Part shown: positions 10,235 through 34,945 of the stretch, one piece after another
Numbering within the stretch: position 1 is the stretch's first letter
How the letters are laid out: each line of letters starts with the position of its first letter
Source: a virus
Lineage: Duplodnaviria > Caudoviricetes
Virus record (IMG/VR): IMGVR_UViG_3300047160_036266
Location: 224,001 to 288,000 of that record
Direction: 5' to 3' (one strand)
DNA length: 64,000 nt
Program-made: the position numbers and the translations under genes
Notes under the pieces: model-generated
The model's database searches: none
What the model was told of the DNA's origin: nothing
Seen by the model: the letters and a program-made list of their open reading frames with translations, nothing else

Positions 10235-11044
10235 ATGAAATCGTTCTTTTTTGCGTGCCTATTTACCACATCTTTATTGTTCACCCTGACATCGAGATTT
10301 TCAACTAAGGCGGACGAACCGGACATCGAGTTACATAAAAAGTGTCTGTACCCGACCGTGCGCGTGGAGAATGAAGGGAGTGGCGGCACCGGCGTTATTG
10401 TTCGTAGCGATAGGGTAGGCGACAAGGAATATCGAAATGTTGCCATCACCTGCGCCCATGTTATCCATCCATTGTCAAGATACAAGGTTCGCGTCCCGAC
10501 CTACGAAGAGTGGTCCACCTTCGTGGAGTTCGAGGATTATCCGTGTCGCGTGTACGGCAAGAATGAGGATGCGGACCTGACTGTTCTGTTGTTTACCACA
10601 CCCCGCCCGATGCCAGTGGCCACCTTCGGGTTCCGGGAAAGTTTGTATATCGGCACCGACGTATATCACATCGGTTGCGGGCTGGGGCCTGAGCCTCGTC
10701 TGGATTATGGGAAGATCACTTCCCTTGGCAGCAAGATCGAAGGCCACAGTGCCAAAGCCTATCGGACCTCAATGAACATGGTTCCTGGGGATTCGGGAGG
10801 GCCGGTATTCCACAAGCACCGCCTGGTGGGCTTTTCCCAGGCGATCAAGGTATTGTGTTTCCGGGGCTTCCCCACGCCCATCACACACATATCCTACATC
10901 ATTCCAGTGGAGCGGGTTAAAACCTGGGATGAAAAGGAAAATAACACCCTGCATTTCATATATAAGGAGCGACACGACTTGCCAGAGCTTCCCTTCGCCA
11001 TCTTGCGATTGGAAGAGTATCGCTGGGAGGGTCTTCCTAAGTAG
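10235..11044 (+). CDS. trypsin-like serine protease with N-terminal signal peptide
   Basis: TCAHV (His), DADL (Asp), PGDSGGPV (Ser); hydrophobic N-terminus; start reassigned to 10235. Confidence 0.85.
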   Translation: MKSFFFACLFTTSLLFTLTSRFSTKADEPDIELHKKCLYPTVRVENEGSGGTGVIVRSDRVGDKEYRNVAITCAHVIHPLSRYKVRVPTYEEWSTFVEFEDYPCRVYGKNEDADLTVLLFTTPRPMPVATFGFRESLYIGTDVYHIGCGLGPEPRLDYGKITSLGSKIEGHSAKAYRTSMNMVPGDSGGPVFHKHRLVGFSQAIKVLCFRGFPTPITHISYIIPVERVKTWDEKENNTLHFIYKERHDLPELPFAILRLEEYRWEGLPK

Positions 11045-17772: not shown

Positions 17773-18474
17773 ATGAAGTCATATAACCAGTGGAGCAACG
17801 ATCAAAATATCCACGGCAACCCTATTCCGTGGCCCACGCGCAATAATACCAACCCGTGGGGCGTTCCACAGAATCCTTACCAACCCAATATTCCGCCAAA
17901 CAATATGGGCATCGGCAAGCTCGGAACGAATATAAACATCGGACGTAAGTTCAGGTGGACTCTGGAGTTAAAATACAAGGACTCCACCCTGCTTGGCCCC
18001 TTCTTTGTTAAAGTGGCCAGCCGTCCGAACCTGAATATTGAAGAGACGACCGTGGACTACCTATCGGACAAATATTGGGTGGCCGGGCAGTCACGCTGGC
18101 AAGATTTGCAGGTGAGCGCTTATATTGACGGGCAGAGTGCCGGCGACCCCAAGACCGCCGAACATCAAATAGTCAATGGTATGGGAGAGTTGGCCTACGC
18201 GCAGGGTTTGACCGGGATGTTACGTCTATGGGACGGCTGCGGTACGGAACTGGAAAATTGGGAATTGAAGAATATGTTTTGCCAGAACATCCAGAGCGAT
18301 CTGGAGTACAGCAGCAGCGATATAACGGTGGAAATGACCTTCAAATACAGCGAGGCGAAATATTCCTCAACCATGCAACCTTGGACCCCTGGTGAGTTGG
18401 CTGCGAAGAAGCGGCAGGCACTCATTGACAAGGCGAGGGCCTATGCCCCGCACTTACGGTTCACTGAATTTTAG
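17773..18474 (+). CDS. T4 gp19-like tail tube protein
   Basis: RKFRWTLE, VKVASRPNLNIEETTV, WQDL, LWDGCG..LENWEL, LEYSSSD..VEMTFKY. Confidence 0.75.
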   Translation: MKSYNQWSNDQNIHGNPIPWPTRNNTNPWGVPQNPYQPNIPPNNMGIGKLGTNINIGRKFRWTLELKYKDSTLLGPFFVKVASRPNLNIEETTVDYLSDKYWVAGQSRWQDLQVSAYIDGQSAGDPKTAEHQIVNGMGELAYAQGLTGMLRLWDGCGTELENWELKNMFCQNIQSDLEYSSSDITVEMTFKYSEAKYSSTMQPWTPGELAAKKRQALIDKARAYAPHLRFTEF

Positions 18475-19081
18475 TGGCTCGGACGAGGTATTGCGGGTCG
18501 GTGTCAGGGGTGCTGTGCCAGCAGATGATACCCAGGTGGTTAGTCTTCTCCCCGCTGGTTTCCTTGTCGTGCCAGCGGTTCTCGAAGTCCTCGTAAGATA
18601 GTTTGCCCCGGTCGCCTTCGATGGACGGGTCTTCAAAGTAGATGTTTTCGCCGTCGTAACCGATGGCGACGACGTAGTGGCCGCTTTCGTCGGTTTTGTA
18701 GTATTTGGGTGCGCCCCAGGCTTGAATATTGCAGATGACCGGCCATTGCTTATCAATATAAGACAGGAGTTCGTTGAGGGACATATCCTCTTTTTTGACG
18801 GCGTTGAGGCCGAAGAATTTGGCCCCTCGCACAATATTGTCCGGCTCAGTGCCTTCCTTTTCGTTGGTTTTGAGGGCCTTGATGAAATCGTCTTCACTGT
18901 CGGGGCCAAGTTTGTAGAACTCGCAAATGGCACGCAGGGCGGCGGCACCGCAGCTAAAGCTTTTTTGCTGTCGCACGCTTGGCAGTGGTATCTTGACATA
19001 CTGGAGTATTTCCCCGTTCGGGACTTGGTGCTTCTTCTCTTCCATGAGAAACCATTCCTTGAAAGTAACCCGTGCATTCAT
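18461..19081 (-). CDS. C39-family cysteine peptidase with capsid-targeting-like N-terminus
   Basis: RQQKSFSCGAAAL, SGHYVVAIGYD, YFEDPS; begins MNARVTFKEWFLMEE. Confidence 0.85.
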   Translation of the reverse strand: MNARVTFKEWFLMEEKKHQVPNGEILQYVKIPLPSVRQQKSFSCGAAALRAICEFYKLGPDSEDDFIKALKTNEKEGTEPDNIVRGAKFFGLNAVKKEDMSLNELLSYIDKQWPVICNIQAWGAPKYYKTDESGHYVVAIGYDGENIYFEDPSIEGDRGKLSYEDFENRWHDKETSGEKTNHLGIICWHSTPDTDPQYLVRATKIQ

Positions 19082-19090
19082 GTGCCTCCA

Positions 19091-19474
19091 TTACCACCCG
19101 TGTTTTTTGGCGATGCGGTCGGCACACTTCTTAATTCCTCCTGGGTTGGGCGCATGACGGGAATATGCCTTGGCGGCACGGACCTGCTTCTTGTTGGACA
19201 CAGGGAAGCTCTTGCCAGGTGCGCCGCCGGACGGGCCGCAGAACGGTCCTTCGCCGGGGCCGCTGGTTTCCCGCTCCTTGCCGACGTTGGAGCCGCCGGG
19301 CTTGTCATGCACGTCCTTGTGTTCCCGCTCGACCAGCCATTCCTTGAACTTCTTCCAGCCCGCACGCTTCATCTTGGCCTTGTGGGCGGCAGACTCACCC
19401 TCTTCCTCATCATGGTCGAGGTCGATGCCGGTACGTTCTTCCTCACGTTCCAGTTCTCGGTGTGATTTCTTCAT
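19091..19474 (-). CDS. small charged hypothetical protein
   Basis: internal KFKEWLVERE; TATATA 4 nt upstream. Confidence 0.65.
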   Translation of the reverse strand: MKKSHRELEREEERTGIDLDHDEEEGESAAHKAKMKRAGWKKFKEWLVEREHKDVHDKPGGSNVGKERETSGPGEGPFCGPSGGAPGKSFPVSNKKQVRAAKAYSRHAPNPGGIKKCADRIAKKHGW

Positions 19475-19490
19475 GACCTATATATCAGCG

Positions 19491-19754
19491 CTATTTCTTT
19501 TTCTGCTTCTTGGGACCAGGGGCCGCAGGCATGGGCGGCTTCGCCCCGCCGGGCGCACCACCTACGGGGGCGGCACCGCCCGTCTGCATGGTGCCGGGGC
19601 ACGGACCTGGGCCACCGGCGCAGGAACTCTTGCTGTGGTAGGTTGCTGAGTCGGAAGGTCGCTGGCCGGCTGGAAACTTACTGGCGTCGGCCTTGTCGTC
19701 GGCCACCATCAAGCCTTCACGGACCAGCCACTCCTGAAATGAAAGAAACCCCAT
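19491..19754 (-). CDS. small Gly/Pro-rich putative internal head protein
   Basis: MGFLSFQEWLVRE start. Confidence 0.6.
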   Translation of the reverse strand: MGFLSFQEWLVREGLMVADDKADASKFPAGQRPSDSATYHSKSSCAGGPGPCPGTMQTGGAAPVGGAPGGAKPPMPAAPGPKKQKKK

Positions 19755-19784
19755 GCACTATGTAGTAGTGCATGGGGTTTCTTT
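19742..19784. promoter_or_regulatory. perfect 19-bp inverted repeat covering a start codon, with a TACATA box at the loop
   Basis: aaagaaaccccatgcacta-tgtag-tagtgcatggggtttcttt. Confidence 0.8.
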
Positions 19785-19798
19785 ATTGGGCGAACGGA

Positions 19799-20350
19799 CT
19801 ACTTCTTCTTGGGGGTGGCGTAGCTACCCCGGCCTGGCCGGGTCAGGACGCCCTCGCTGACCATCCGGCTGAGTTCGACGGAGGGGTTGCTGCGGCGGTT
19901 CTTCTTTTCAAAGAACTCCTTGATGTCCTGGTTGCTCGCCACCCCGCCCTGCTCCTTGATGAAGTCCAGAATCAACTGGCGGGCGGTGATGCCTGGCTCC
20001 TCTTCCGGTGGCGGTTGCTCCTCCAGGCCCAGCAGCCCAAGTTGTTGCTGCAAGGAGGAAAAGAGCCGGTCTGACGCCGCCCGGTGCAGCTTGATCTGCT
20101 CCTCGTGCCAGGCCATGCGGGTGCGAATCTTCTCCACCGCTGCCTGAAGCTGACTGACCTCTTCGGGAACCTCTTCGGCGGGTGCCGATGGGGTGTCTGG
20201 GGGAACAACAGGGGCCTCGACCTTCGCCGCCGAAACTTCCGGGGCGGGGTCGGGCGTTATTTCATCCGTGCTGGCCGGCGGCGCTTGTTCAGCAGCGGGT
20301 GCTTCCTGCTCATCTTCTTCCGGCGACCGCTTTTGCGGCTTCTTGGTCAT
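19799..20350 (-). CDS. protein with an acidic disordered N-terminus, coiled coil and C-terminal winged HTH
   Basis: LILDFIKEQGGVASNQDI..SVELSRMVSEGVLTRPGRGSY. Confidence 0.65.
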   Translation of the reverse strand: MTKKPQKRSPEEDEQEAPAAEQAPPASTDEITPDPAPEVSAAKVEAPVVPPDTPSAPAEEVPEEVSQLQAAVEKIRTRMAWHEEQIKLHRAASDRLFSSLQQQLGLLGLEEQPPPEEEPGITARQLILDFIKEQGGVASNQDIKEFFEKKNRRSNPSVELSRMVSEGVLTRPGRGSYATPKKK

Positions 20351-20393
20351 GTTGCCTCCAAAGGGGAAAAAGTTGGACAGTGACGCTCCCTGG

Positions 20394-20422
20394 AGCATAA
20401 GGGATGCCACCGCCGTTTGCAA
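20394..20422 (-). promoter_or_regulatory. sigma70-type promoter
   Basis: TTGCAA-17 nt-TATGCT. Confidence 0.55.
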
Positions 20423-20430
20423 CATGATTT

Positions 20431-20643
20431 TCAGAAGGTCAACCAGGGATCGTCAATGCTGCGGTACTTGGGCTTCTTCGGCTCGCGTACCGGCACTGGT
20501 CCCGTCTCCTCCTGCGGCGGCGGTTGCTGGGGCTGGATCAGATGATGCTTCTTCTTGTTCGCCCCGACGTTTACAACTGGCGTGGACTGAAGTGGAATGT
20601 ACGGGCAGTAGAAGTACCCTGCGTTTCGGATTATGTTTCCCAT
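20431..20643 (-). CDS. mini-gene carrying the C-terminal motif of the major capsid protein
   Basis: AGYFYCPYIPLQSTPVV versus MCP SGYFYCPYVPLTQTPVV; has its own SD. Confidence 0.65.
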   Translation of the reverse strand: MGNIIRNAGYFYCPYIPLQSTPVVNVGANKKKHHLIQPQQPPPQEETGPVPVREPKKPKYRSIDDPWLTF

Positions 20644-20696
20644 CTCCCCTGCATTATAAGGACGGGGCGGACATCATGCCCGCCCCGTGTTCGTTT

Positions 20697-20978
20697 TTAT
20701 TGTCCCGGCTGGGTCGGCAATGACCAGTGGGCCGGGTAGACCGTCTCATCCGAATCCTCCCTGGGCTTGTACCAGATGCGATTCAGACGGCCATACCAGA
20801 ACTGTTCGTCAAGCTCGGCCCGCAGGGTCCACATATCGGTCTTGGGAACCTTGCCGGCGTACTCCTCGTCCGTCTGCGGCCCGCCGTAGCGGTTGACCGC
20901 TGGCACGGTCTTGGCGTTCATGGTGTTGTCGTATATCTTGACAAACTTCTTTTTCTCCTCGATCCAATGATTTTTCAT
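20697..20978 (-). CDS. hypothetical protein
   Basis: MKNHWIEEKKK start; SD AAGG. Confidence 0.55.
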   Translation of the reverse strand: MKNHWIEEKKKFVKIYDNTMNAKTVPAVNRYGGPQTDEEYAGKVPKTDMWTLRAELDEQFWYGRLNRIWYKPREDSDETVYPAHWSLPTQPGQ

Positions 20979-21001
20979 CCTTATCCTTTCTAAATATGAA
21001 T

Positions 21002-21202
21002 ATGCCATTCGTCAGCAAAGCGCAACGACGTGCCTGTTATGCCCGCAACGACCCGAATTGGGATTGCGGTGAGTGGGAGTCCCACACACACGGCGACTTA
21101 CCCGAACGCAAGAAGAAGATGAGGAAATCCTTTAAGGAGTGGGTTCTTGAGAGGGAGGCTCGTTCTGGAGCCGCTGACCCTCCAGCAGAACGGCGTGCAT
21201 AA
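21002..21202 (+). CDS. small basic hypothetical protein
   Basis: MPFVSKAQRRACY; internal KSFKEWVLERE; TAAATA 5 nt upstream. Confidence 0.6.
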   Translation: MPFVSKAQRRACYARNDPNWDCGEWESHTHGDLPERKKKMRKSFKEWVLEREARSGAADPPAERRA

Positions 21203-21329
21203 ACTGCCCGCAGCCCAGCTTTTCGAGGAGGCCCAGCTTGGCCCACTTTTCACTGCACTCTTTCGCCTCATTCAAGAACCGCTTACTGATCTCTTTCTTT
21301 CGGCGCTGTCCTAACCAATGGTTCTTCAT
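21132..21329 (-). CDS. mini-gene homologous to the N-terminal segment of the major capsid protein
   Basis: RFLNEAKECSEKWAKLGLLE..AVLLEGQRLQNE versus MCP RFLNEARELESRWGRTGLLE..AVLLENQRLMNE. Confidence 0.7.
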   Translation of the reverse strand: MKNHWLGQRRKKEISKRFLNEAKECSEKWAKLGLLEKLGCGQFMHAVLLEGQRLQNEPPSQEPTP

Positions 21330-21352
21330 GGACTTATATAGTTAGCCTTTCT

Positions 21353-21733
21353 TCAAAATGCCTCCTCATACGGCGGCGGATCGTCGCCGCCGAAGAACTG
21401 GACCCGCTTCTTGATCGCGTGGAGGTCCATCTTGTTTATTTTCCAGTACCACACCTGCCAGTCCTTTACCTCCTCTTCCGTGAAGTCGGGGGTGCGGATA
21501 ATCATGCCCGCCGGGTAGCACTCATAGACCCTGGCGTACATCGCCAGTTCGGCTTCGGAGAAGTCCTCGGTCTGGATGCGGGCACCGATGACGTAGTGTT
21601 CTTCGGTGGCCGCATAGAGCGCCCGCCAGTGGGCAATTTCCTCATCCGTGATGGGATGCCGGGATAAACCCCGGATCATCGACATATTCGAGTGGATGTC
21701 CTGTGCCATCTCGATTGAAGCTCGGATTTTCAT
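21353..21733 (-). CDS. hypothetical protein
   Basis: ORF in an operon-like run. Confidence 0.55.
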   Translation of the reverse strand: MKIRASIEMAQDIHSNMSMIRGLSRHPITDEEIAHWRALYAATEEHYVIGARIQTEDFSEAELAMYARVYECYPAGMIIRTPDFTEEEVKDWQVWYWKINKMDLHAIKKRVQFFGGDDPPPYEEAF

Positions 21734-21764
21734 GTTTATACAGGTACGCCAGGAGAACCAGTAG

Positions 21765-22706
21765 TCAAAATATTTTCAGATTTGTTGGTAATTTTTCTAA
21801 ACCATTCGGGAACTCTCGATAATTGAACTCCCGGTGTTTGCCGACGAGGTTGCGAAATTGGTAGTATTTTCTATTTGTTTCCGTGGCATTCCCGCCAAAT
21901 ATTGTCCGTTCTGTCCAGAATTCAAACGGCGTGGCGGTAGCTCTTACTGCGTCAGCTTTGGCCGACACTATTGCGTCTTGCGTTTGCGAGGTTGGCTTTA
22001 TTTCGATTATTCCCGTCTCACCGATGATGGACAAAACACAAAGATCGGCTATGTAGGATTTTGTTTCTTCCGAGTCTGGAAGTTTGTATTTGTATCTCTC
22101 GCTTTCGGAGTAGTACCTGAATATAGAGGGATCGTAGTCGAGCTTGATGAAAGCGGCTAGTTCCAGCAGGGACCGCCACCTAATCGGCCCCCGGCGGTAA
22201 TGGGAATTGCACCCCTTGAGGGGGAAGTAGAGGCCAGAAATGGAGGCACGACGCAATGGAATGTATTTTGCTGTTTCATTGCTGATGGGCCGCATCAGGT
22301 TCCTAACAACGTCCGGCACTTCACAGTTGTCATCAAAGACCCTGTACCAAGTGCTTCCGGGGTGGTCTGCCTTGGTCCGCTTTGTTTCTGGGGAGGACCG
22401 CATCCAGCCAACCACATCCGGGTCGAGAGCGGGGTCGATAACGCTGTACCATGTGCAGTTGGGATGGCGGTCGAATAGGATGAAGGGGTCTTCGATTTCC
22501 TCTATTTCGGGGATTTCCAACTTCCAGGTGTTGGGCCTATTTCTGGCGATTGCTTGGTGAATCTTAAATACCAGGCCACTATGGCGGCTGCGAACTTCAC
22601 CGTGGCCTGAGAAATAATGCTCAAAGCAACACCTGGGAATTTGCGTTTGCGTTGGGCGTGTTTCCTTTGACGCCTTCCTGGCTCTCATCATCATAAATCT
22701 GCCCAT
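21765..22706 (-). CDS. TnsA-N / T4 gp4-like PD-(D/E)XK endonuclease
   Basis: WRSLLE..YSE..YIADL..IIEIKP. Confidence 0.65.
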   Translation of the reverse strand: MGRFMMMRARKASKETRPTQTQIPRCCFEHYFSGHGEVRSRHSGLVFKIHQAIARNRPNTWKLEIPEIEEIEDPFILFDRHPNCTWYSVIDPALDPDVVGWMRSSPETKRTKADHPGSTWYRVFDDNCEVPDVVRNLMRPISNETAKYIPLRRASISGLYFPLKGCNSHYRRGPIRWRSLLELAAFIKLDYDPSIFRYYSESERYKYKLPDSEETKSYIADLCVLSIIGETGIIEIKPTSQTQDAIVSAKADAVRATATPFEFWTERTIFGGNATETNRKYYQFRNLVGKHREFNYREFPNGLEKLPTNLKIF

Positions 22707-22726
22707 GCCCTATTATAAGTGCTGGC

Positions 22727-22765
22727 AAAATAAAAAGCCCCGGTCAGGCGAGTGCCTGCCGGGGC
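22727..22765 (-). terminator. intrinsic terminator of the HU gene
   Basis: GCCCCGGCAGGC-actc-GCCTGACCGGGGC then TTTTTATTTT. Confidence 0.75.
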
Positions 22766-22789
22766 CTGCGAGCCGAAGAGATGTGCCGA

Positions 22790-23125
22790 TCAGATGGAAA
22801 CGGCGTCCTTGACGGCCTTGAGGGGCCGGACCCGCACGACATTGCGAGCAGGCTTGGCGGCGAAGACATGGGGCTGCTTGGTGAACGGGTGGACGCCGTT
22901 GCGGGCCTTGGTCGCCGGCTTGCGGACGACCCTGAACTTGGCCAGGCCGGGCAGCGCGAAGACCTGGACGTTCTTCTTGCGAAGCTGGTCCAGGGCAATA
23001 CCCGTCAGGGAGTCGATGACATCCCCGACCTGCCGGGCCGTGAGGCCGGTTTCCTCTGCGATCTTGGCCTTTAGCTCACTCTTGGTGAGGGCCTTGCCGC
23101 CCTTGGCGGCTTGACTTTGCGCCAT
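22790..23125 (-). CDS. hup: HU-family histone-like DNA-binding protein
   Basis: LTKSEL..IAEETGL..LPGLAKFRVVRKPATKARNGVHPFT..AKPARNVVRVRPLKAVKDAV. Confidence 0.9.
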   Translation of the reverse strand: MAQSQAAKGGKALTKSELKAKIAEETGLTARQVGDVIDSLTGIALDQLRKKNVQVFALPGLAKFRVVRKPATKARNGVHPFTKQPHVFAAKPARNVVRVRPLKAVKDAVSI

Positions 23126-24779: not shown

Positions 24780-26216
24780 TTAGATCACAAAATTCGCAAT
24801 TGACATGCGGGCATAGAACTTGGACCCTTCGCGCAAAAGCTTCTTTCCGTATCTGGTAAGTATACCTTTCCGTGGGCAGAAGCTCTCAGGATCAAGCACT
24901 ACCGGCGTCTGGGTCAATGGGACATATGGGCAGTAGAAATATCCGCTATCCATATAACTGTCGCCTTTATAACCCATAAGTATCTGGTTTGTCGGGAATA
25001 GCGGGTCTTTGTAGAGCCGCCAACGGTTGTTGACCGTGCCGACATACTGGATACCCAGAGACGAAGTGAACGTCTCAGACGGGGCGGGCGCGAAACCTGC
25101 GGTGGCCGTCTCGAAGATGGAAGCGACTTCTGGGGAAGTCACGAGCCAGTTCGCACCACCACGCAACGTCTTCCGGTGGACGACGTTGGAGACTTCTACG
25201 ATTTTCACATATAGTGACTCGTACTTCTCTTTGATAGTTTCGCCTAATGCGGTGTTAAAATCCCATGCCGAAACCGTACCGGCATTATTGCGGAGGTCCG
25301 TCAATACTTCACGGTCGATTTCGAGGTTGATTTCCTGGGCCAGAACGGCGGTCAGTTCCGCCTCGGCGTCCAGGTTGTGCTGCGAGCGCAAGTCCTGCTG
25401 AGCCTCATAGCTCCACACTGCCTTGAGCTTACGAGTCTTGGCAGCGATCTCTTCCGACTCAACCACGAGGTTGATTTCGGGGAGGTCTTGCTGGCACTCC
25501 ATGTTATACTCGTAAGACATAACGGCGTGGTTCGCGCCGGGGGCTGCGTTCCACGTCAACGTCATCTCACCCGTGGTGAGGTTCAAGCTACCAGCCGTGG
25601 CGAAGGTCGCCGGGGAGCCGATAGACGTGAAGTTGAACGTGCCAGCCGAAGAAACCACGAAGGTCTGCACGGCGGTAGTGCCCTGGTAAACCGTACCAGT
25701 CACGGTGCCGGCCAGGACGGGCGTATGCTCGAATGGAGCGTATACGGAGGTCGTCACAACGCCGTTATCGGTGCTGGAGGTTTCATTCTGGACAAACTGG
25801 TGTGAATACCAGATGTCCAGGTTGGCAGTACCGTCAGCCAACTGCTGGAGCGAGTTTACGTCGTCAGCCGGGAACCCGGAGTTGTTGTCAGCGCCACGGG
25901 TCGCGCCCTTGTTGGACGAGTACCGGAAGCGCAGGTAGTACACCAACCCGGTCGGGCCAAGCAATGGCTGGACCGACACGATCTTGTTGGCGATCAACTG
26001 CGGGTAAATACGACGAACGAGCGGGATAGAGATGCGCTTGAACTGAGCAATATCGCTCGTGTCCGTAGACACTTCGTTCATGAGGCGCTGGTTTTCGAGA
26101 AGAACTGCACAGGCAGAACGGACATAACGATCCTCAATACCTTCAAGCAGACCAGTACGGCCCCAACGACTCTCTAATTCCCTAGCTTCGTTCAAAAATC
26201 TAGCGTTTGCGTTCAT
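24780..26216 (-). CDS. major capsid protein (T4 gp23-like)
   Basis: IPLVRR..VQP..GPTGLVYYLR, AKTRKLKAVWS.EAQQDLRSQH.LDAEAEL, GYFYCPYVPL, GILTRYG. Confidence 0.95.
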   Translation of the reverse strand: MNANARFLNEARELESRWGRTGLLEGIEDRYVRSACAVLLENQRLMNEVSTDTSDIAQFKRISIPLVRRIYPQLIANKIVSVQPLLGPTGLVYYLRFRYSSNKGATRGADNNSGFPADDVNSLQQLADGTANLDIWYSHQFVQNETSSTDNGVVTTSVYAPFEHTPVLAGTVTGTVYQGTTAVQTFVVSSAGTFNFTSIGSPATFATAGSLNLTTGEMTLTWNAAPGANHAVMSYEYNMECQQDLPEINLVVESEEIAAKTRKLKAVWSYEAQQDLRSQHNLDAEAELTAVLAQEINLEIDREVLTDLRNNAGTVSAWDFNTALGETIKEKYESLYVKIVEVSNVVHRKTLRGGANWLVTSPEVASIFETATAGFAPAPSETFTSSLGIQYVGTVNNRWRLYKDPLFPTNQILMGYKGDSYMDSGYFYCPYVPLTQTPVVLDPESFCPRKGILTRYGKKLLREGSKFYARMSIANFVI

Positions 26217-26241: not shown

Positions 26242-27141
26242 TTAGCGGTCCTTTTTGACTCCAGAAAGAACGAGTAGTTCGTTGATTTCACTGTCGGGGT
26301 TGTTATATTCCGCAATAACAACGCCTTCCTCAGTGTTAGTATGTCCTCTCCCCGTTGCGTTCTTCACTTTCTGCACTCTTTCTTTCTGCTCAGTTATAAG
26401 CTGGCCCTTTTTCTGTTCGCTCTTGGCCTGCCTCTGTTCGGTGAGAAGTTCCTGAGCGTGGCGAACCGTCTCATTTAGCTTAGTATTGTCGTTCGATAAA
26501 CGAATATTGCGTGCTTCCATAATGCGAAGCTGGCCACGAAGCTCGTCATTCCCCTTGCGGGCTTCTTCGAGCTTGCTGCTGGTCGCCAGTGCATAGTCCT
26601 CGTCGGACAGGTAATTGGCGGTGATGTCCACGATCTTGTCGAGGGTGACTTTGTGTTCGGCCATGCGGGGGTCGTTGAGTACATCACGCTTGGCCTGCTC
26701 GTATATCTCGGCACCCTTGAACTGGAGGAACTGGTCCACCTTGTCAACGATGTAGTCCTTCATCTCGCCAAGCTTCTTGTCGTACTCCTCGTACATATCA
26801 ACTTCGAGCGTGTTGTTCTTTTCACGCTCTTGGAGGAGCATCTGATAGGCTTCCTCGTAACCCTCTTCCAGCGCCTTGTTGTACTCATCGCGCTGCATTT
26901 CCAGACGGTTCCGCAGGTCGGCAATAATGCCGTATGCCTCCTGATAGCCCTGGTAGGCGGTCTTCTCCGCATTGGACATTTCCTCAGAAAGCTGCTTATA
27001 CGCTTCCTCCAACTTGTCGTTGTACTCAGACTCCAGTTCACGCTTGCTACTTTCCAGCATGTCGTTGACGGCTGAAGCAACCTCGTTGATCTGGTCCTCT
27101 GGCAACAACTTCTTGAGAGCTTCCACTATTTTGTCTGCCAT
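26242..27141 (-). CDS. prohead core scaffold protein (gp22-like)
   Basis: acidic coiled coil between the protease and MCP genes. Confidence 0.8.
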   Translation of the reverse strand: MADKIVEALKKLLPEDQINEVASAVNDMLESSKRELESEYNDKLEEAYKQLSEEMSNAEKTAYQGYQEAYGIIADLRNRLEMQRDEYNKALEEGYEEAYQMLLQEREKNNTLEVDMYEEYDKKLGEMKDYIVDKVDQFLQFKGAEIYEQAKRDVLNDPRMAEHKVTLDKIVDITANYLSDEDYALATSSKLEEARKGNDELRGQLRIMEARNIRLSNDNTKLNETVRHAQELLTEQRQAKSEQKKGQLITEQKERVQKVKNATGRGHTNTEEGVVIAEYNNPDSEINELLVLSGVKKDR

Positions 27142-27824
27142 TAGCCTAACCTCGCTTTTATGTTGCTAGTGTGTTCTTTGAAAATACCGCCCAAATACGC
27201 AACCAGCACATCTTTATTTACCGTATGTATGCGGCTACCTTCGTTTTTGGACGGGGATTTATCAGAAAATTGGGGCACATACGTTTCCCGCTTGGGGCCG
27301 GTGGCGATCTTCTCTTGGAAGGCGGCGAACGTGCTGGGATCGGCCACAGCGTCAAACGTGATGAGCTTGTAAGACTCACCAATGACGAGGATACCGTTCT
27401 CGTCGGTTCTACCGTTACCAACGCCCCGGCTGCTAATGCCGACTCTTACGCCGTCGTTGAGGAGGCTTCGTAGAATCTTGCCGTGAGGAGTATTAAGTAT
27501 TTCCCCCTCACCCATCAAGGAAGTTCCCTCCCACCACAACTTCGTAATAACGTGGGACGCTTTCTCAAAGTGGATGATACTATCGGTGGGATGATCCAAT
27601 TCACCCACCAGGCCCCTAGCTTTGATAGCATCGTTCAGCTTCTTGATATTTTCATCAAGGACACCGAATGGATACATCCGCTTGTTCTTATTGACCGCAT
27701 CGGCCTCTTGAAACTTGCCACGAAATTTGGTTAAGCCACCAGGGGTGGTCGTCGTAGACTCATTCAAGTTAAGGACGAAGCCGGCATCTAAGCAACAGTC
27801 GATTAACAATACTTCGTCGCTCAT
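27141..27824 (-). CDS. prohead protease (gp21-like)
   Basis: NKNKRMYP, GELDHP, GVRVGISSRGVG, ITFDAVADPS. Confidence 0.95.
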   Translation of the reverse strand: MSDEVLLIDCCLDAGFVLNLNESTTTTPGGLTKFRGKFQEADAVNKNKRMYPFGVLDENIKKLNDAIKARGLVGELDHPTDSIIHFEKASHVITKLWWEGTSLMGEGEILNTPHGKILRSLLNDGVRVGISSRGVGNGRTDENGILVIGESYKLITFDAVADPSTFAAFQEKIATGPKRETYVPQFSDKSPSKNEGSRIHTVNKDVLVAYLGGIFKEHTSNIKARLG

Positions 27825-32362: not shown

Positions 32363-34945
32363 TCAATCTTCACCTATGCTGTAGTCGATGTCCTCTTCGT
32401 CCTGCTCAGCCTCATAATCTTGAATCTCCAGATCAAATTTCCTAATGTCTTCGTCGTCCGGTTCCGCCAGCGGTGCCCCTTCGGCGGGATTCGGCCCTGG
32501 TGCGCCACTCGGACCCGTTTCAGGCGGCGATTCCATCGCCACCCCACCGCCAGGCGGTGGAGCGCCGCCTCCTGGCGGCGGTGTAAGACCCATCGTGCCG
32601 GGTCCACCCGGCCCAGGTGACGGTCCCAGCATCGGACTTGGGCCTCCCGGTTCCGTGCCCATTTCCTGGCCGGGCTGGGGAGTCTGCCCCGGTACGCCCA
32701 CACCCAGCAGTTGTGGGTTCTGAGCCAAGACCTGCAACTTCAGGTCTTCGAGTTTCTGTATCTTCAGCCGGGCAAGCATTTCTTCGGCCTCTTCCGTGCT
32801 ATATTTCATCCACTTCGTCTGGATGTCCCAATCCGCCATTAGCTGAGAGGATTTCAGGCTGCTCGCGTTGTTTATACGGTTCGTCGTGACTTCCGCCCGG
32901 CTGAGTTCCCGCCAATCGCTCGGCGGGGTCATCTTTATGCGTAGGTCGTCGTATGACTCTTCGGGGAACCCCCGTAGTTGCAGGTGACGGTCGGCCATCT
33001 CCCACAAACCATCTTCCATGTGCGACTGCAACCGCTCGATCATGCGGGCGAACTTGATGTCCTGCGCACTGAGCGTGATGCGAGTTGCGTTGGGGTCTTC
33101 GTTATTGAAGTAATTCTTGGGAAAATTCAGGGCGGCGAACAACTTATTTCTGAAATAAACGGCGTCATCAATCTCACCAAGGTTCTGCGCCCCCGGCAAC
33201 GTGTCGATCTTGGTGTTAGAGTTGGGCCTGATCGGCAACCAATAGTCCTCATCCGCCGCCGGCGCGTGCCAGCGTTCTTCGACTATGGAGGAGGCACCGA
33301 ACTGGCTGCCCCGGCTGCTGGCTATCTTCTTCTTGCGGAACTGGTCCTTCATCCGCTCGATAAATGCCTCTGCCTTGAAGGGCGGCAACTGGCCGACATC
33401 AATATAGAACACCCGACGCTCCGGCGCACGGGTCAACCGATACACCACCATCGCGTCTTCCATCAACCGCAACTGGTGAGCCGGTCCACGGGCCGCTTCA
33501 ACCAGAGACACCCCGTAGGGGTAGAAGGTCTTGCGATCATCCCCGATGCGGATGTGGACAATCTGCTCTGGGGCAAACCGTATGGCGGTTGCCTGCATGA
33601 TTTCGGAGTCGGTCGCCTGGACCACCGGGGCGCGAATGAGGCTTTGGTAGTCGGGGCCTTCCTTGCTTTGCTGGAACTCCACCACCTTGCCCTTGGTCGT
33701 CTCGATGCGGTATATTGACTCTGGCGGCAGGCGGACTATTTTCATCACACCGTCCTTGGGCTGGTCCGGGTTGATGACTATTTCGTAGAACAAGTCGCCA
33801 AAGATGCACAGGTTCTTGAAGTCGCTCCAGGTACGGCGGTCCATGTTCAGCATCAGGCGGTGGAAAAATAGGAACTCAAGCTCCTCCTTGACATCCCGGT
33901 TCTTGCATTCGATTTTGAAGACGTGGTTATTCTCGTCCTTCTGGCAGTTGTGGAATATCACGGATTTTGAGCAAAAGTTCTGGTGGCCCTCTACGGACAA
34001 GTCGTATACGTCCATTGTCTGGTATTCTTGAATACCAATGACCCGGCGGCGGTCCTCCTTCTTCGCCAAATGCCGTATTTCTTTAAGGGAGAAACCTTCC
34101 TTTTGCAGACATAACTTGATGGTATTCCAGTCGTGGGGGACCGTCCGCTTGATGTCATTCATCGCCATGCCGGCGCTGGCAGCCCGGATGATCTTGTTCA
34201 ACCTTTCGTATCGTGCCTCCGGGTGGCCGCACCGCCATTGCTCCACGAACTGCCGCTCGTGCATCCAGCCCTGTGTGTGCGTGAAGATGCGTGGGAACTG
34301 GCTGGTCTTGAGCTTCGTGAAGTTTTGGTTGGCCTTGACCCGGTAGAAGGGCATCAACTCGTCACCAAACTTGAGGCCCCCGGCCATCGTCCATTCGCCC
34401 GAACGCAACAATACTCGATGGTCCGGGGTGGCGATGAAATGATCGCCATTATCCAGCACCACCTTCACAGTTGGGGCGGTTTTGGTCTTGCGAGGAGCGA
34501 AACCCCAGCCCAGGGTGTAGTCGCCCTTGGCAAAGTCCCAGCAATACAGTAGAAACTTCTCGTCGGGCTTGTTCTTGGCCAGCCACTCGATGGTCGGGAA
34601 TCCGAAGGGGGTAGCGATCTCTGTGTCGCCCGCCACGCACGCCTCGTCGGCAAAGACCGTCATCGCCATCTCAATCTCGGCCACGTTGCGGAGACGTTCG
34701 TACTCCTTGTACCGGGACATGCGGTTGCTGACGGTAGAAAGGTCGATGAAGTCCTGTGTCTCCCGGTAACGCACGAGCCGCTGCTCATTGCCGCCCCAGA
34801 AGGAACCGTCCGGCCCCATGCTGGGAATGGCGTCGGGCTGCGAGATGCCAGCGCCGGTCAAGTCCCTTACGTCGATCTTCCTCGCCAGAGGGTCTTTCGC
34901 AAAGGCGTAGGTGAATAGCTTGAAATAGTCAGCCCATATAGGCAT
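32363..34945 (-). CDS. portal protein (gp20-like) interrupted by an intein
   Basis: RYKEYERL, QLRLMEDAMVVYRLTRAPERRVFYIDVG.LP..KAE, EDYWLP, LPGAQNLGEIDD. Confidence 0.95.
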   Translation of the reverse strand: MPIWADYFKLFTYAFAKDPLARKIDVRDLTGAGISQPDAIPSMGPDGSFWGGNEQRLVRYRETQDFIDLSTVSNRMSRYKEYERLRNVAEIEMAMTVFADEACVAGDTEIATPFGFPTIEWLAKNKPDEKFLLYCWDFAKGDYTLGWGFAPRKTKTAPTVKVVLDNGDHFIATPDHRVLLRSGEWTMAGGLKFGDELMPFYRVKANQNFTKLKTSQFPRIFTHTQGWMHERQFVEQWRCGHPEARYERLNKIIRAASAGMAMNDIKRTVPHDWNTIKLCLQKEGFSLKEIRHLAKKEDRRRVIGIQEYQTMDVYDLSVEGHQNFCSKSVIFHNCQKDENNHVFKIECKNRDVKEELEFLFFHRLMLNMDRRTWSDFKNLCIFGDLFYEIVINPDQPKDGVMKIVRLPPESIYRIETTKGKVVEFQQSKEGPDYQSLIRAPVVQATDSEIMQATAIRFAPEQIVHIRIGDDRKTFYPYGVSLVEAARGPAHQLRLMEDAMVVYRLTRAPERRVFYIDVGQLPPFKAEAFIERMKDQFRKKKIASSRGSQFGASSIVEERWHAPAADEDYWLPIRPNSNTKIDTLPGAQNLGEIDDAVYFRNKLFAALNFPKNYFNNEDPNATRITLSAQDIKFARMIERLQSHMEDGLWEMADRHLQLRGFPEESYDDLRIKMTPPSDWRELSRAEVTTNRINNASSLKSSQLMADWDIQTKWMKYSTEEAEEMLARLKIQKLEDLKLQVLAQNPQLLGVGVPGQTPQPGQEMGTEPGGPSPMLGPSPGPGGPGTMGLTPPPGGGAPPPGGGVAMESPPETGPSGAPGPNPAEGAPLAEPDDEDIRKFDLEIQDYEAEQDEEDIDYSIGED
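33947..34639 (-). mobile_element. 231-aa mini-intein (Hint) in the portal
   Basis: C1-VAGDT, block B ATPDHRV, block F DVYDLSVEGHQNF, terminal HN followed by a +1 Cys; no LAGLIDADG or HNH motif seen. Confidence 0.92.

Follow-up and report, generated by a model that had tools for sequence, protein, structure and literature searches.

Two short genes of a huge T4-like phage encode tagged pieces of the major capsid protein

Two mini-genes of an uncultured, huge T4-like phage each encode a diverged piece of the major capsid protein (MCP), one from its N-terminal and one from its C-proximal region, and in each the piece is joined to a short portable tag. We consider it highly probable that both open reading frames are real, selected genes. 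Their sequences and those of their relatives strongly support the view that they are retained and separately expressed, and are not debris: both belong to widespread conserved families, and the start context of the N-terminal piece is common to other genes.

The window, i.e., the whole 64-kb stretch of DNA that was analyzed, covers positions 224001-288000 of a 343-kb IMG/VR record with an estimated completeness of 69%. The mini-genes, here called miniN and miniC, lie 3.5-4.3 kb downstream of a portal-protease-scaffold-MCP module. The relevant features, in window coordinates, are:

32363-34945, minus strand: portal (head module)
27141-27824, minus strand: prohead protease (head module)
26242-27141, minus strand: coiled-coil scaffold-like gene (head module)
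24780-26216, minus strand: resident full-length MCP of the Gp23 family, 478 aa (PF07068, E = 1.6e-87; head module)
21334-21340, minus strand: TATATAA box, 4 nt upstream of the miniN ATG
21132-21329, minus strand: miniN, 65 aa, an N-terminal KN[HY]WL-basic tag (MKNHWL...) followed by a copy of the presumed MCP N-terminal propeptide
20996-21202, plus strand: 68-aa gene, with 14 synonymous codon changes relative to L036 (the closest relative) and 2 differences in the first 41 residues
20697-20978, minus strand: 93-aa gene between the mini-genes, with the N-terminal tag MKNHWI... and no MCP similarity; the L036 ortholog is 61% identical
20653-20688, minus strand: signals upstream of miniC, a hairpin and then TATAAT
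20431-20643, minus strand: miniC, 70 aa, an MCP C-proximal strand segment, a variable Pro/Lys-rich linker and the C-terminal tag YRSIDDPW
19799-20425, minus strand: AbiEi-type winged-helix (wHTH) gene directly downstream of miniC (PF13338, PADLOC AbiEi N-domain)

The MCP of L036 is 96% identical to the resident one. In IMG/VR, 351 contigs encode an MCP relative, with identities of 83-100% among the best 80 of the 351, and the closest deposited genome, LR756511.1 (an uncultured phage, 595 kb), has an MCP with 82% identity. A blastn search with the 4.2-kb neighborhood of the mini-genes gave no match among 50,697 phage records.

Residues 17-57 of miniN align with MCP residues 6-48 at 48% identity (E = 1e-10), and residues 2-24 of miniC with MCP residues 418-440 at 61% identity (E = 2e-9; both BLASTP against the resident MCP); the miniC match spans about residues 415-440 and includes the motif GYFYCPY..TPVV. 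A preliminary description of this DNA had assigned the two frames to the N- and C-terminal parts of the MCP, and these alignments bear out both assignments. It had presented them as stand-alone MCP segments, which holds for the segments but misses the anatomy, each piece being joined to a portable tag. It had also called them diverged, not exact, copies, and over the matching stretches the identity to the MCP gene at the DNA level is indeed only about 65-70%, with many synonymous differences; the pieces are therefore old or foreign copies, not recent duplications. In a six-frame tblastn search of the 64 kb with the MCP, only the two mini-genes fell below E = 0.01 besides the MCP gene itself (8.9e-6 and 1.2e-5); the next-best match had E = 0.28, and nothing MCP-like was found in the 490 bp that separate miniN from miniC. 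The whole 343-kb record contains the same two MCP-like stretches besides the MCP gene, and no others. Judged by sequence, the resident MCP is the parent type of both pieces. The homology of both to Gp23-type MCPs is segmental, and neither spans the whole domain. miniN had no match to PF07068 or to any other Pfam or PHROG family, while miniC reached 18.9 bits against PF07068, below the gathering cut-off of 24.4, and covers only profile positions 314-332 of 376. The sole PHROG match of miniC is a 43-position family of unknown function (E = 0.004), and no Pfam, NCBI-style or PADLOC family covers either protein.

The N-terminal propeptide of T4 gp23 is removed by the gp21 protease. The segment copied by miniN would be approximately the corresponding propeptide, removed by the prohead protease, as indicated by alignment to mature T4 gp23 and by the start of the MCP Pfam domain (PF07068) at residue 56; it ends just past the conserved glutamates of LLE...QRL-NE. 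An AlphaFold2 model of the MCP, built from a shallow alignment (mean pLDDT 43.9) and usable only for the N-terminal helices and the insertion domain, has two helices in this region (residues 3-19 and 30-49). The miniC segment could not be placed in the MCP fold because the model is poor. For miniC itself, AlphaFold2 with the family alignment predicted no regular secondary structure, which fits action through linear motifs; in this model, miniC resembles a flexible chain bearing a pair of linear motifs. A complex prediction for MCP and miniC scored 0.00, a value that weighs neither way on binding.

The miniC family consists of proteins of 60-107 aa with the MCP strand segment, a hypervariable linker of 17-49 residues and the acidic-aromatic tag YRSIDDPW, a tail that is part of no MCP. 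The architecture is found at seven related phage loci (eight with the window) and in at least 25 further clusters at 50% identity. A profile search of 1.84 billion representative proteins gave 917 matches at E <= 0.001, of which 100 reached E <= 1e-10. We retrieved the 27 best small matches; all are complete proteins of 60-107 aa with their own initiator, all 27 have the MCP-like core, and 26 have the tag (degenerate in P0048). Across an alignment of 32 sequences, mean pairwise identity is 0.66 for the 18-residue core and 0.67 for the 8-residue tag vs. 0.20 for the linker. The reading frames are all open even though synonymous sites are saturated in most pairs. A dN/dS check had been proposed in the preliminary description; pairwise omega was 0.12-0.69 wherever it could be computed, values that are only indicative because of this saturation. 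Most members have alanine in the FY-A-PY motif, as in T4, at a position where the MCPs of the clade have an invariant cysteine, from which it follows that the family is old and did not arise by recent copying of the resident gene. L036 has an intact miniC, with an identity of only 49-54% (the value varies with the alignment).

The order miniC and then the wHTH gene is common to five lineages (the window, L036, L040, L018/G002, and L122/G001); four distant miniC relatives, on mostly short contigs, have no conserved neighbor gene. One further match, in Ralstonia phage RsoM2USA, was rejected as a mini-gene since it lies in a 411-aa gene. Directly after miniC in L040 is an 87-aa ORF (10539-10802, plus strand) that copies the spine-helix region of the MCP (about residues 245-303) and ends in the tag variant RRTIDDFW, giving a tandem pair of MCP pieces.

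For miniN, a single-sequence search found only the protein itself, a search among longer proteins gave no match, and the family emerged from a profile search. The profile, made from four copies in related phages, found 63 small proteins at E <= 0.01. About eight of these are truncated MCP genes on short contigs and about 55 lack a Gp23 domain, many of the latter on contigs of 20-220 kb. All 25 members that were read contain the MCP N-terminal segment; the likeness to MCP stops right after QRL-NE in most of them and extends to about MCP residue 70 in four. The LLE site, of the L/I-x-E type after which the prohead protease cuts T4-type CTS proteins, is invariant across the family. Eight members open with the exact tag MKN[HYF]WL and then basic residues, and four with a variant, while the KN[HY]WL motif is at the C-terminal end of three (P0159, P0161, and P0166) and a related NWL..GF motif ends two members. 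One member carries a zinc ribbon, and in P0158 the propeptide piece is bracketed by two peptides of the capsid-targeting (CTS) type known from T4. miniN was called as a gene on 8 metagenome contigs, and an identical protein is also present on a 670-kb contig; the strain-level contigs with miniN are 99.2-100% identical to the window and have no power.

The miniN of L036 is a broken remnant, which lacks the start codon, has a mutated tag and has lost the MCP-like part to a gap of 115 nt, a length not divisible by three. In a more distant relative, L040, the gene for tag and propeptide is intact; the intact form is therefore ancestral, and its decay in L036 means that miniN is dispensable. The mini-genes are thus accessory. 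The preliminary description had named absence from relatives and neutral decay as outcomes that would refute its reading; taken as a whole, the families show neither, although miniN itself has decayed in L036. Upstream of miniN, window positions 21345-22790 form an indel relative to L036, where an ORF for a TnsA-like PD-(D/E)xK endonuclease (21765-22706) and a 126-aa ORF (21353-21733) are missing and an HU-like gene is directly followed by the miniN remnant. This indel may be a homing-type cassette.

The two mini-genes differ in their start signals. The ATG of miniN is preceded by TATATAA, without a Shine-Dalgarno sequence. The record has 63 TATATA[AT] boxes, and 10 of them precede, by exactly 3-4 nt, the ATG of a frame of at least 35 codons, vs. 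0-2 for other offsets; the ten genes are miniN and nine others, including long genes and genes with CTS-type N-termini. We infer that this context is a promoter for leaderless mRNAs, and by analogy with the T4 late box it is probably late. The gene preceding miniC ends in a 12-bp G+C hairpin (20662-20688). The miniC ATG has a TATAAT (20653-20658) 9 nt upstream of it and is immediately preceded by GGGGAG; in the miniC orthologs of L018 and L040, TATAAT is 5-6 nt before the ATG. Each gene thus has its own expression signal, as the preliminary description had stated, except that the box of miniN is 4 nt and not 5 nt from the ATG.

Several other genes around the pair have distinctive sequences. 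The 68-aa gene (20996-21202, plus strand) is conserved as a protein, has a CTS-like FKEW motif in its C-terminal part, and shares 71 nt at its 3' end with the 3' end of miniN, the two genes being convergent and overlapping. The wHTH gene matches the AbiEi N-domains of PADLOC weakly. Just after it, a perfect inverted repeat of 19 bp (19742-19784; loop of 5 nt) spans the start codon of an 87-aa gene and could be a terminator or a regulatory hairpin. A C39-family cysteine peptidase (18461-19081, minus strand) begins with a CTS-like peptide, and beside it two small Gly/Pro-rich proteins (19091-19754, minus strand) have the same peptide followed by Gly-Gly-like sites. In LR756511.1 (L010), a C39 homolog directly precedes an ORF for the MCP insertion domain.

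Both tags recur on other proteins. MKNHW[LI] opens five genes in the 343-kb record, with synonymous codon variation. Back-translated YRSIDDPW occurs 14 times in a complete 533-kb relative vs. 0 times for a reversed-pattern control, and its serine is encoded by both AGY and TCN codons. Because codons vary in both tags, they are motifs at the protein level. In the 533-kb genome the C-terminal tag is found, among others, on MCP pieces (five different ones), on pieces of a head-module protein and on a prohead-protease paralog without the catalytic His and Ser. Each long relative examined has two to seven intact ORFs with MCP segments, and the pieces found in relatives (residues 1-57, 49-104, 105-240, 245-314, 306-436, and 398-466) together make up most of the protein. 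Families of the miniN and miniC types occur separately in other genomes.

The C-terminal tag also occurs in other settings. A genuine prohead protease in L013 (5471-6208, plus strand) carries the tag variant KYRSVDADW as an insertion in the linker that leads to its C-terminal helix; 60 other proteases of the clade lack it. In the 533-kb relative, L137 1847-2227 (minus strand) encodes a 127-aa C-tagged fragment of the PrkA C-domain (PF06798, E = 3.6e-10), and the adjacent protein resembles another fragment of this kind. Elsewhere in the 343-kb record, beyond the window, a protein of 225 aa (G000 130161-130838, minus strand) has repeats like the L7/L12 C-terminal domain (CTD) and ends in the tag (…KYRSIDDE); it may be a ribosomal-stalk mimic that binds translational GTPases. 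With tags on such non-head pieces as well, a tag need not mean a prohead destination.

The preliminary description had argued that the pieces are retained, and the conserved families of small proteins agree with this. The opposing explanation, that the pieces are debris of an old MCP duplication or recombination that happen to retain open frames, would fit their arrangement, with the N-terminal before the C-terminal piece on a single strand and 490 bp between them, as in an internally deleted MCP copy, and the decay of miniN in L036. We consider it extremely unlikely, and already contradicted: the families are large and their frames intact, and they have conserved non-MCP tags and hypervariable linkers at a divergence that saturates synonymous sites. 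In the 32 aligned miniC members and the 25 miniN members that were read, frames are intact and two modules are conserved, with only the miniN of L036 broken; moreover, the tag belongs to no MCP and the two families are separate in other genomes. Two further origins or uses were rejected: silent cassettes for gene conversion of the MCP, as the pieces are its most conserved segments and have about 65% DNA identity, and derivation from a foreign MCP, as no closer foreign MCP was found.

As to function, the preliminary description had suggested decoys for capsid sensors or modulators of prohead assembly and size. We favor late-acting mimics directed at the prohead over decoys for host defenses. 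We propose tentatively, as something possible but somewhat short of probable, that the mini-proteins are prohead-directed peptide mimics, made late, that tune head assembly or processing or are co-packaged. They would be made alongside the head proteins and would act at the assembling prohead, each copied segment binding whatever the same segment of the MCP binds. For the propeptide copy in miniN the partner might be the scaffold core or the prohead protease, and for the C-proximal piece in miniC a neighboring MCP strand or a folding helper; the tag could serve as an address or adaptor motif that a second, phage-wide partner recognizes. As accessory, non-essential proteins they would in this way adjust how the head is assembled or processed, or would be co-packaged into it. 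We favor action at the prohead because the pieces derive from head proteins, the propeptide piece retains the glutamates after which T4-type proteases cut, the piece in P0158 is flanked by capsid-targeting peptides, the C-terminal tag occurs within a true prohead protease and on a dead one, the miniN start context is common to CTS-tagged genes, and the genes are just downstream of the head module. On the other side, the conserved neighbor of miniC is a DNA-binding wHTH gene and not a head gene, a simple packaging role would be odd since miniN has no cargo beyond the propeptide, and any assembly role of miniN must be dispensable given its loss in L036.

Several known systems share features with this proposal. 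The T4 CTS proteins (IPI, IPII, IPIII, and Alt) are likewise small and fast-evolving and have a common short, portable address peptide; this phage, too, has a greatly expanded CTS-like tag, and such peptides flank P0158. However, KN[HY]WL-basic and YRSIDDPW differ from the T4 peptide in sequence and occur at either end or internally, and the payload of the mini-genes is a piece of capsid protein, not an enzyme or inhibitor, with only a putative packaging role for the tag. Nor does either mini-protein follow the CTS consensus of this phage (M-x-x-F-x-x-W-L..E): MKNHWL plus basic residues has other spacing and no acidic end, and miniC lacks a tag at its N-terminus. Homology links the copied segments to the propeptide and C-proximal strand regions of gp23-type proteins (PF07068, HK97 fold); gp24, however, is a full-length paralog that builds the vertices, whereas proteins of 65-70 aa cannot form an HK97 fold. 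The functional analogy we favor is with T4 gp67 and gp68, whose genes are close to the head genes; these small accessory proteins become part of the scaffolding core and affect the shape of the head. The mini-proteins have no sequence relation to them (no Pfam or PHROG match), and their own place in a core would be putative. HK97-type maturation proteases and encapsulin cargo proteins consist of a domain, a flexible linker and, at the terminus, a short peptide through which they dock to an HK97-fold shell. The mini-proteins have the same architecture, and the true protease of L013 carries the C-terminal tag in its linker; in contrast, there is no sequence similarity, and docking of YRSIDDPW to the shell is putative.

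The mini-proteins might instead be decoys for capsid-sensing immune receptors (CapRel-, Lit- or STAND-type), with peptides that occupy or mis-trigger the sensors and a tag that stabilizes, localizes or delivers the decoy, possibly packaged for injection. We think this unlikely, even though it would account for the many MCP segments in relatives, which resemble a peptide library more than a single binding site, for tagged proteins that copy host-type modules (L7/L12 CTD, PrkA_C) as host-directed effectors would, and for the accessory nature and fast turnover of the families. The MCP is also a documented trigger of several defenses (PMC9712102; PMC3014915 for Gol-Lit). The Gol peptide of T4 gp23, which activates the e14 Lit protease via EF-Tu, is a precedent for a short conserved MCP stretch acting alone as a ligand (PMC3014915); however, it acts within the full-length protein and triggers the defense, and as a free peptide it switches Lit on, not off (PMC3014915), whereas the mini-genes are separate tagged genes that copy MCP residues 6-48 and 415-440. 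The Gol region is in the first quarter of the MCP, its most conserved block, and in our alignment to T4 gp23* the equivalent block is at about MCP residues 56-105, which neither mini-gene copies. The Gol-equivalent region proper, which we take to be about MCP 61-90, is likewise covered by neither. PADLOC-DB gave no defense or anti-defense match for miniN, miniC or the 93-aa tagged neighbor, no sensor is known for the copied segments, and the start context suggests late co-expression, when the real MCP is already abundant. For miniN alone, targeting of a chaperonin is a fair rival: a free MCP N-terminus could bind a GroEL-type chaperonin or another helper and so tune or reserve the folding capacity for the highly abundant MCP. 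The N-terminus of T4 gp23 strongly targets fused proteins to GroEL (PMC3012670, citing Snyder and Tarkowski, 2005), and it is exactly this end of the protein that miniN copies and the family keeps intact. We still rate it as improbable, as it leaves miniC and the other MCP pieces unexplained, chaperonin and co-chaperonin genes (PF00118 and PF00166) were not found in the 343-kb record (69% complete), and any counterpart of the T4 targeting segment in this divergent N-terminus is putative.

Protein fragments often inhibit the interactions of their parent, and T4-like capsids are most conserved in the segments that were copied; the pieces could thus be dominant-negative weapons, conserved fragments of a head protein that poison head assembly in co-infecting relatives. 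Their divergence would be in keeping with this, at 48-61% identity to the resident MCP vs. 83-96% among the MCPs of the clade. Yet no foreign MCP is closer to the pieces than the resident one (at best 16 of 23 residues, as compared with 14 of 23), miniN has no match among longer proteins, and the resident MCP has the same motifs, invariant in the clade, so that self-poisoning would be expected; we see little chance that this explanation is correct. A wider view, which we regard as doubtful, is that huge T4-like phages run a general peptide-display system, in which libraries of small disordered proteins each present one conserved segment, copied from the phage's own head proteins (MCP, prohead protease, a head-module protein) or from host-type proteins (L7/L12 CTD, PrkA), next to a shared linear tag. 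By molecular mimicry the segments would titrate or blind the binders of the original (e.g., capsid sensors, EF-Tu, or chaperones), and the tag would recruit a common phage-encoded reader, e.g., for packaging and injection, or for turnover.

A full-text literature search found no description of stand-alone MCP-fragment genes or of either tag. Both families are large and without Pfam or functional PHROG annotation, and their proteins of 60-100 residues are easily tested; the two portable tags define sets of co-addressed proteins with a possible common reader. If the proposal of prohead-directed mimics is true, capsid-protein sequence has been recruited for a second use, as short tagged peptides that act on head assembly or host factors. 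This would offer a handle on how very large capsids (for genomes of 340-670 kb) control the interactions of scaffold, protease and shell, and on how phages cope with the many host defenses that sense the conserved capsid protein.
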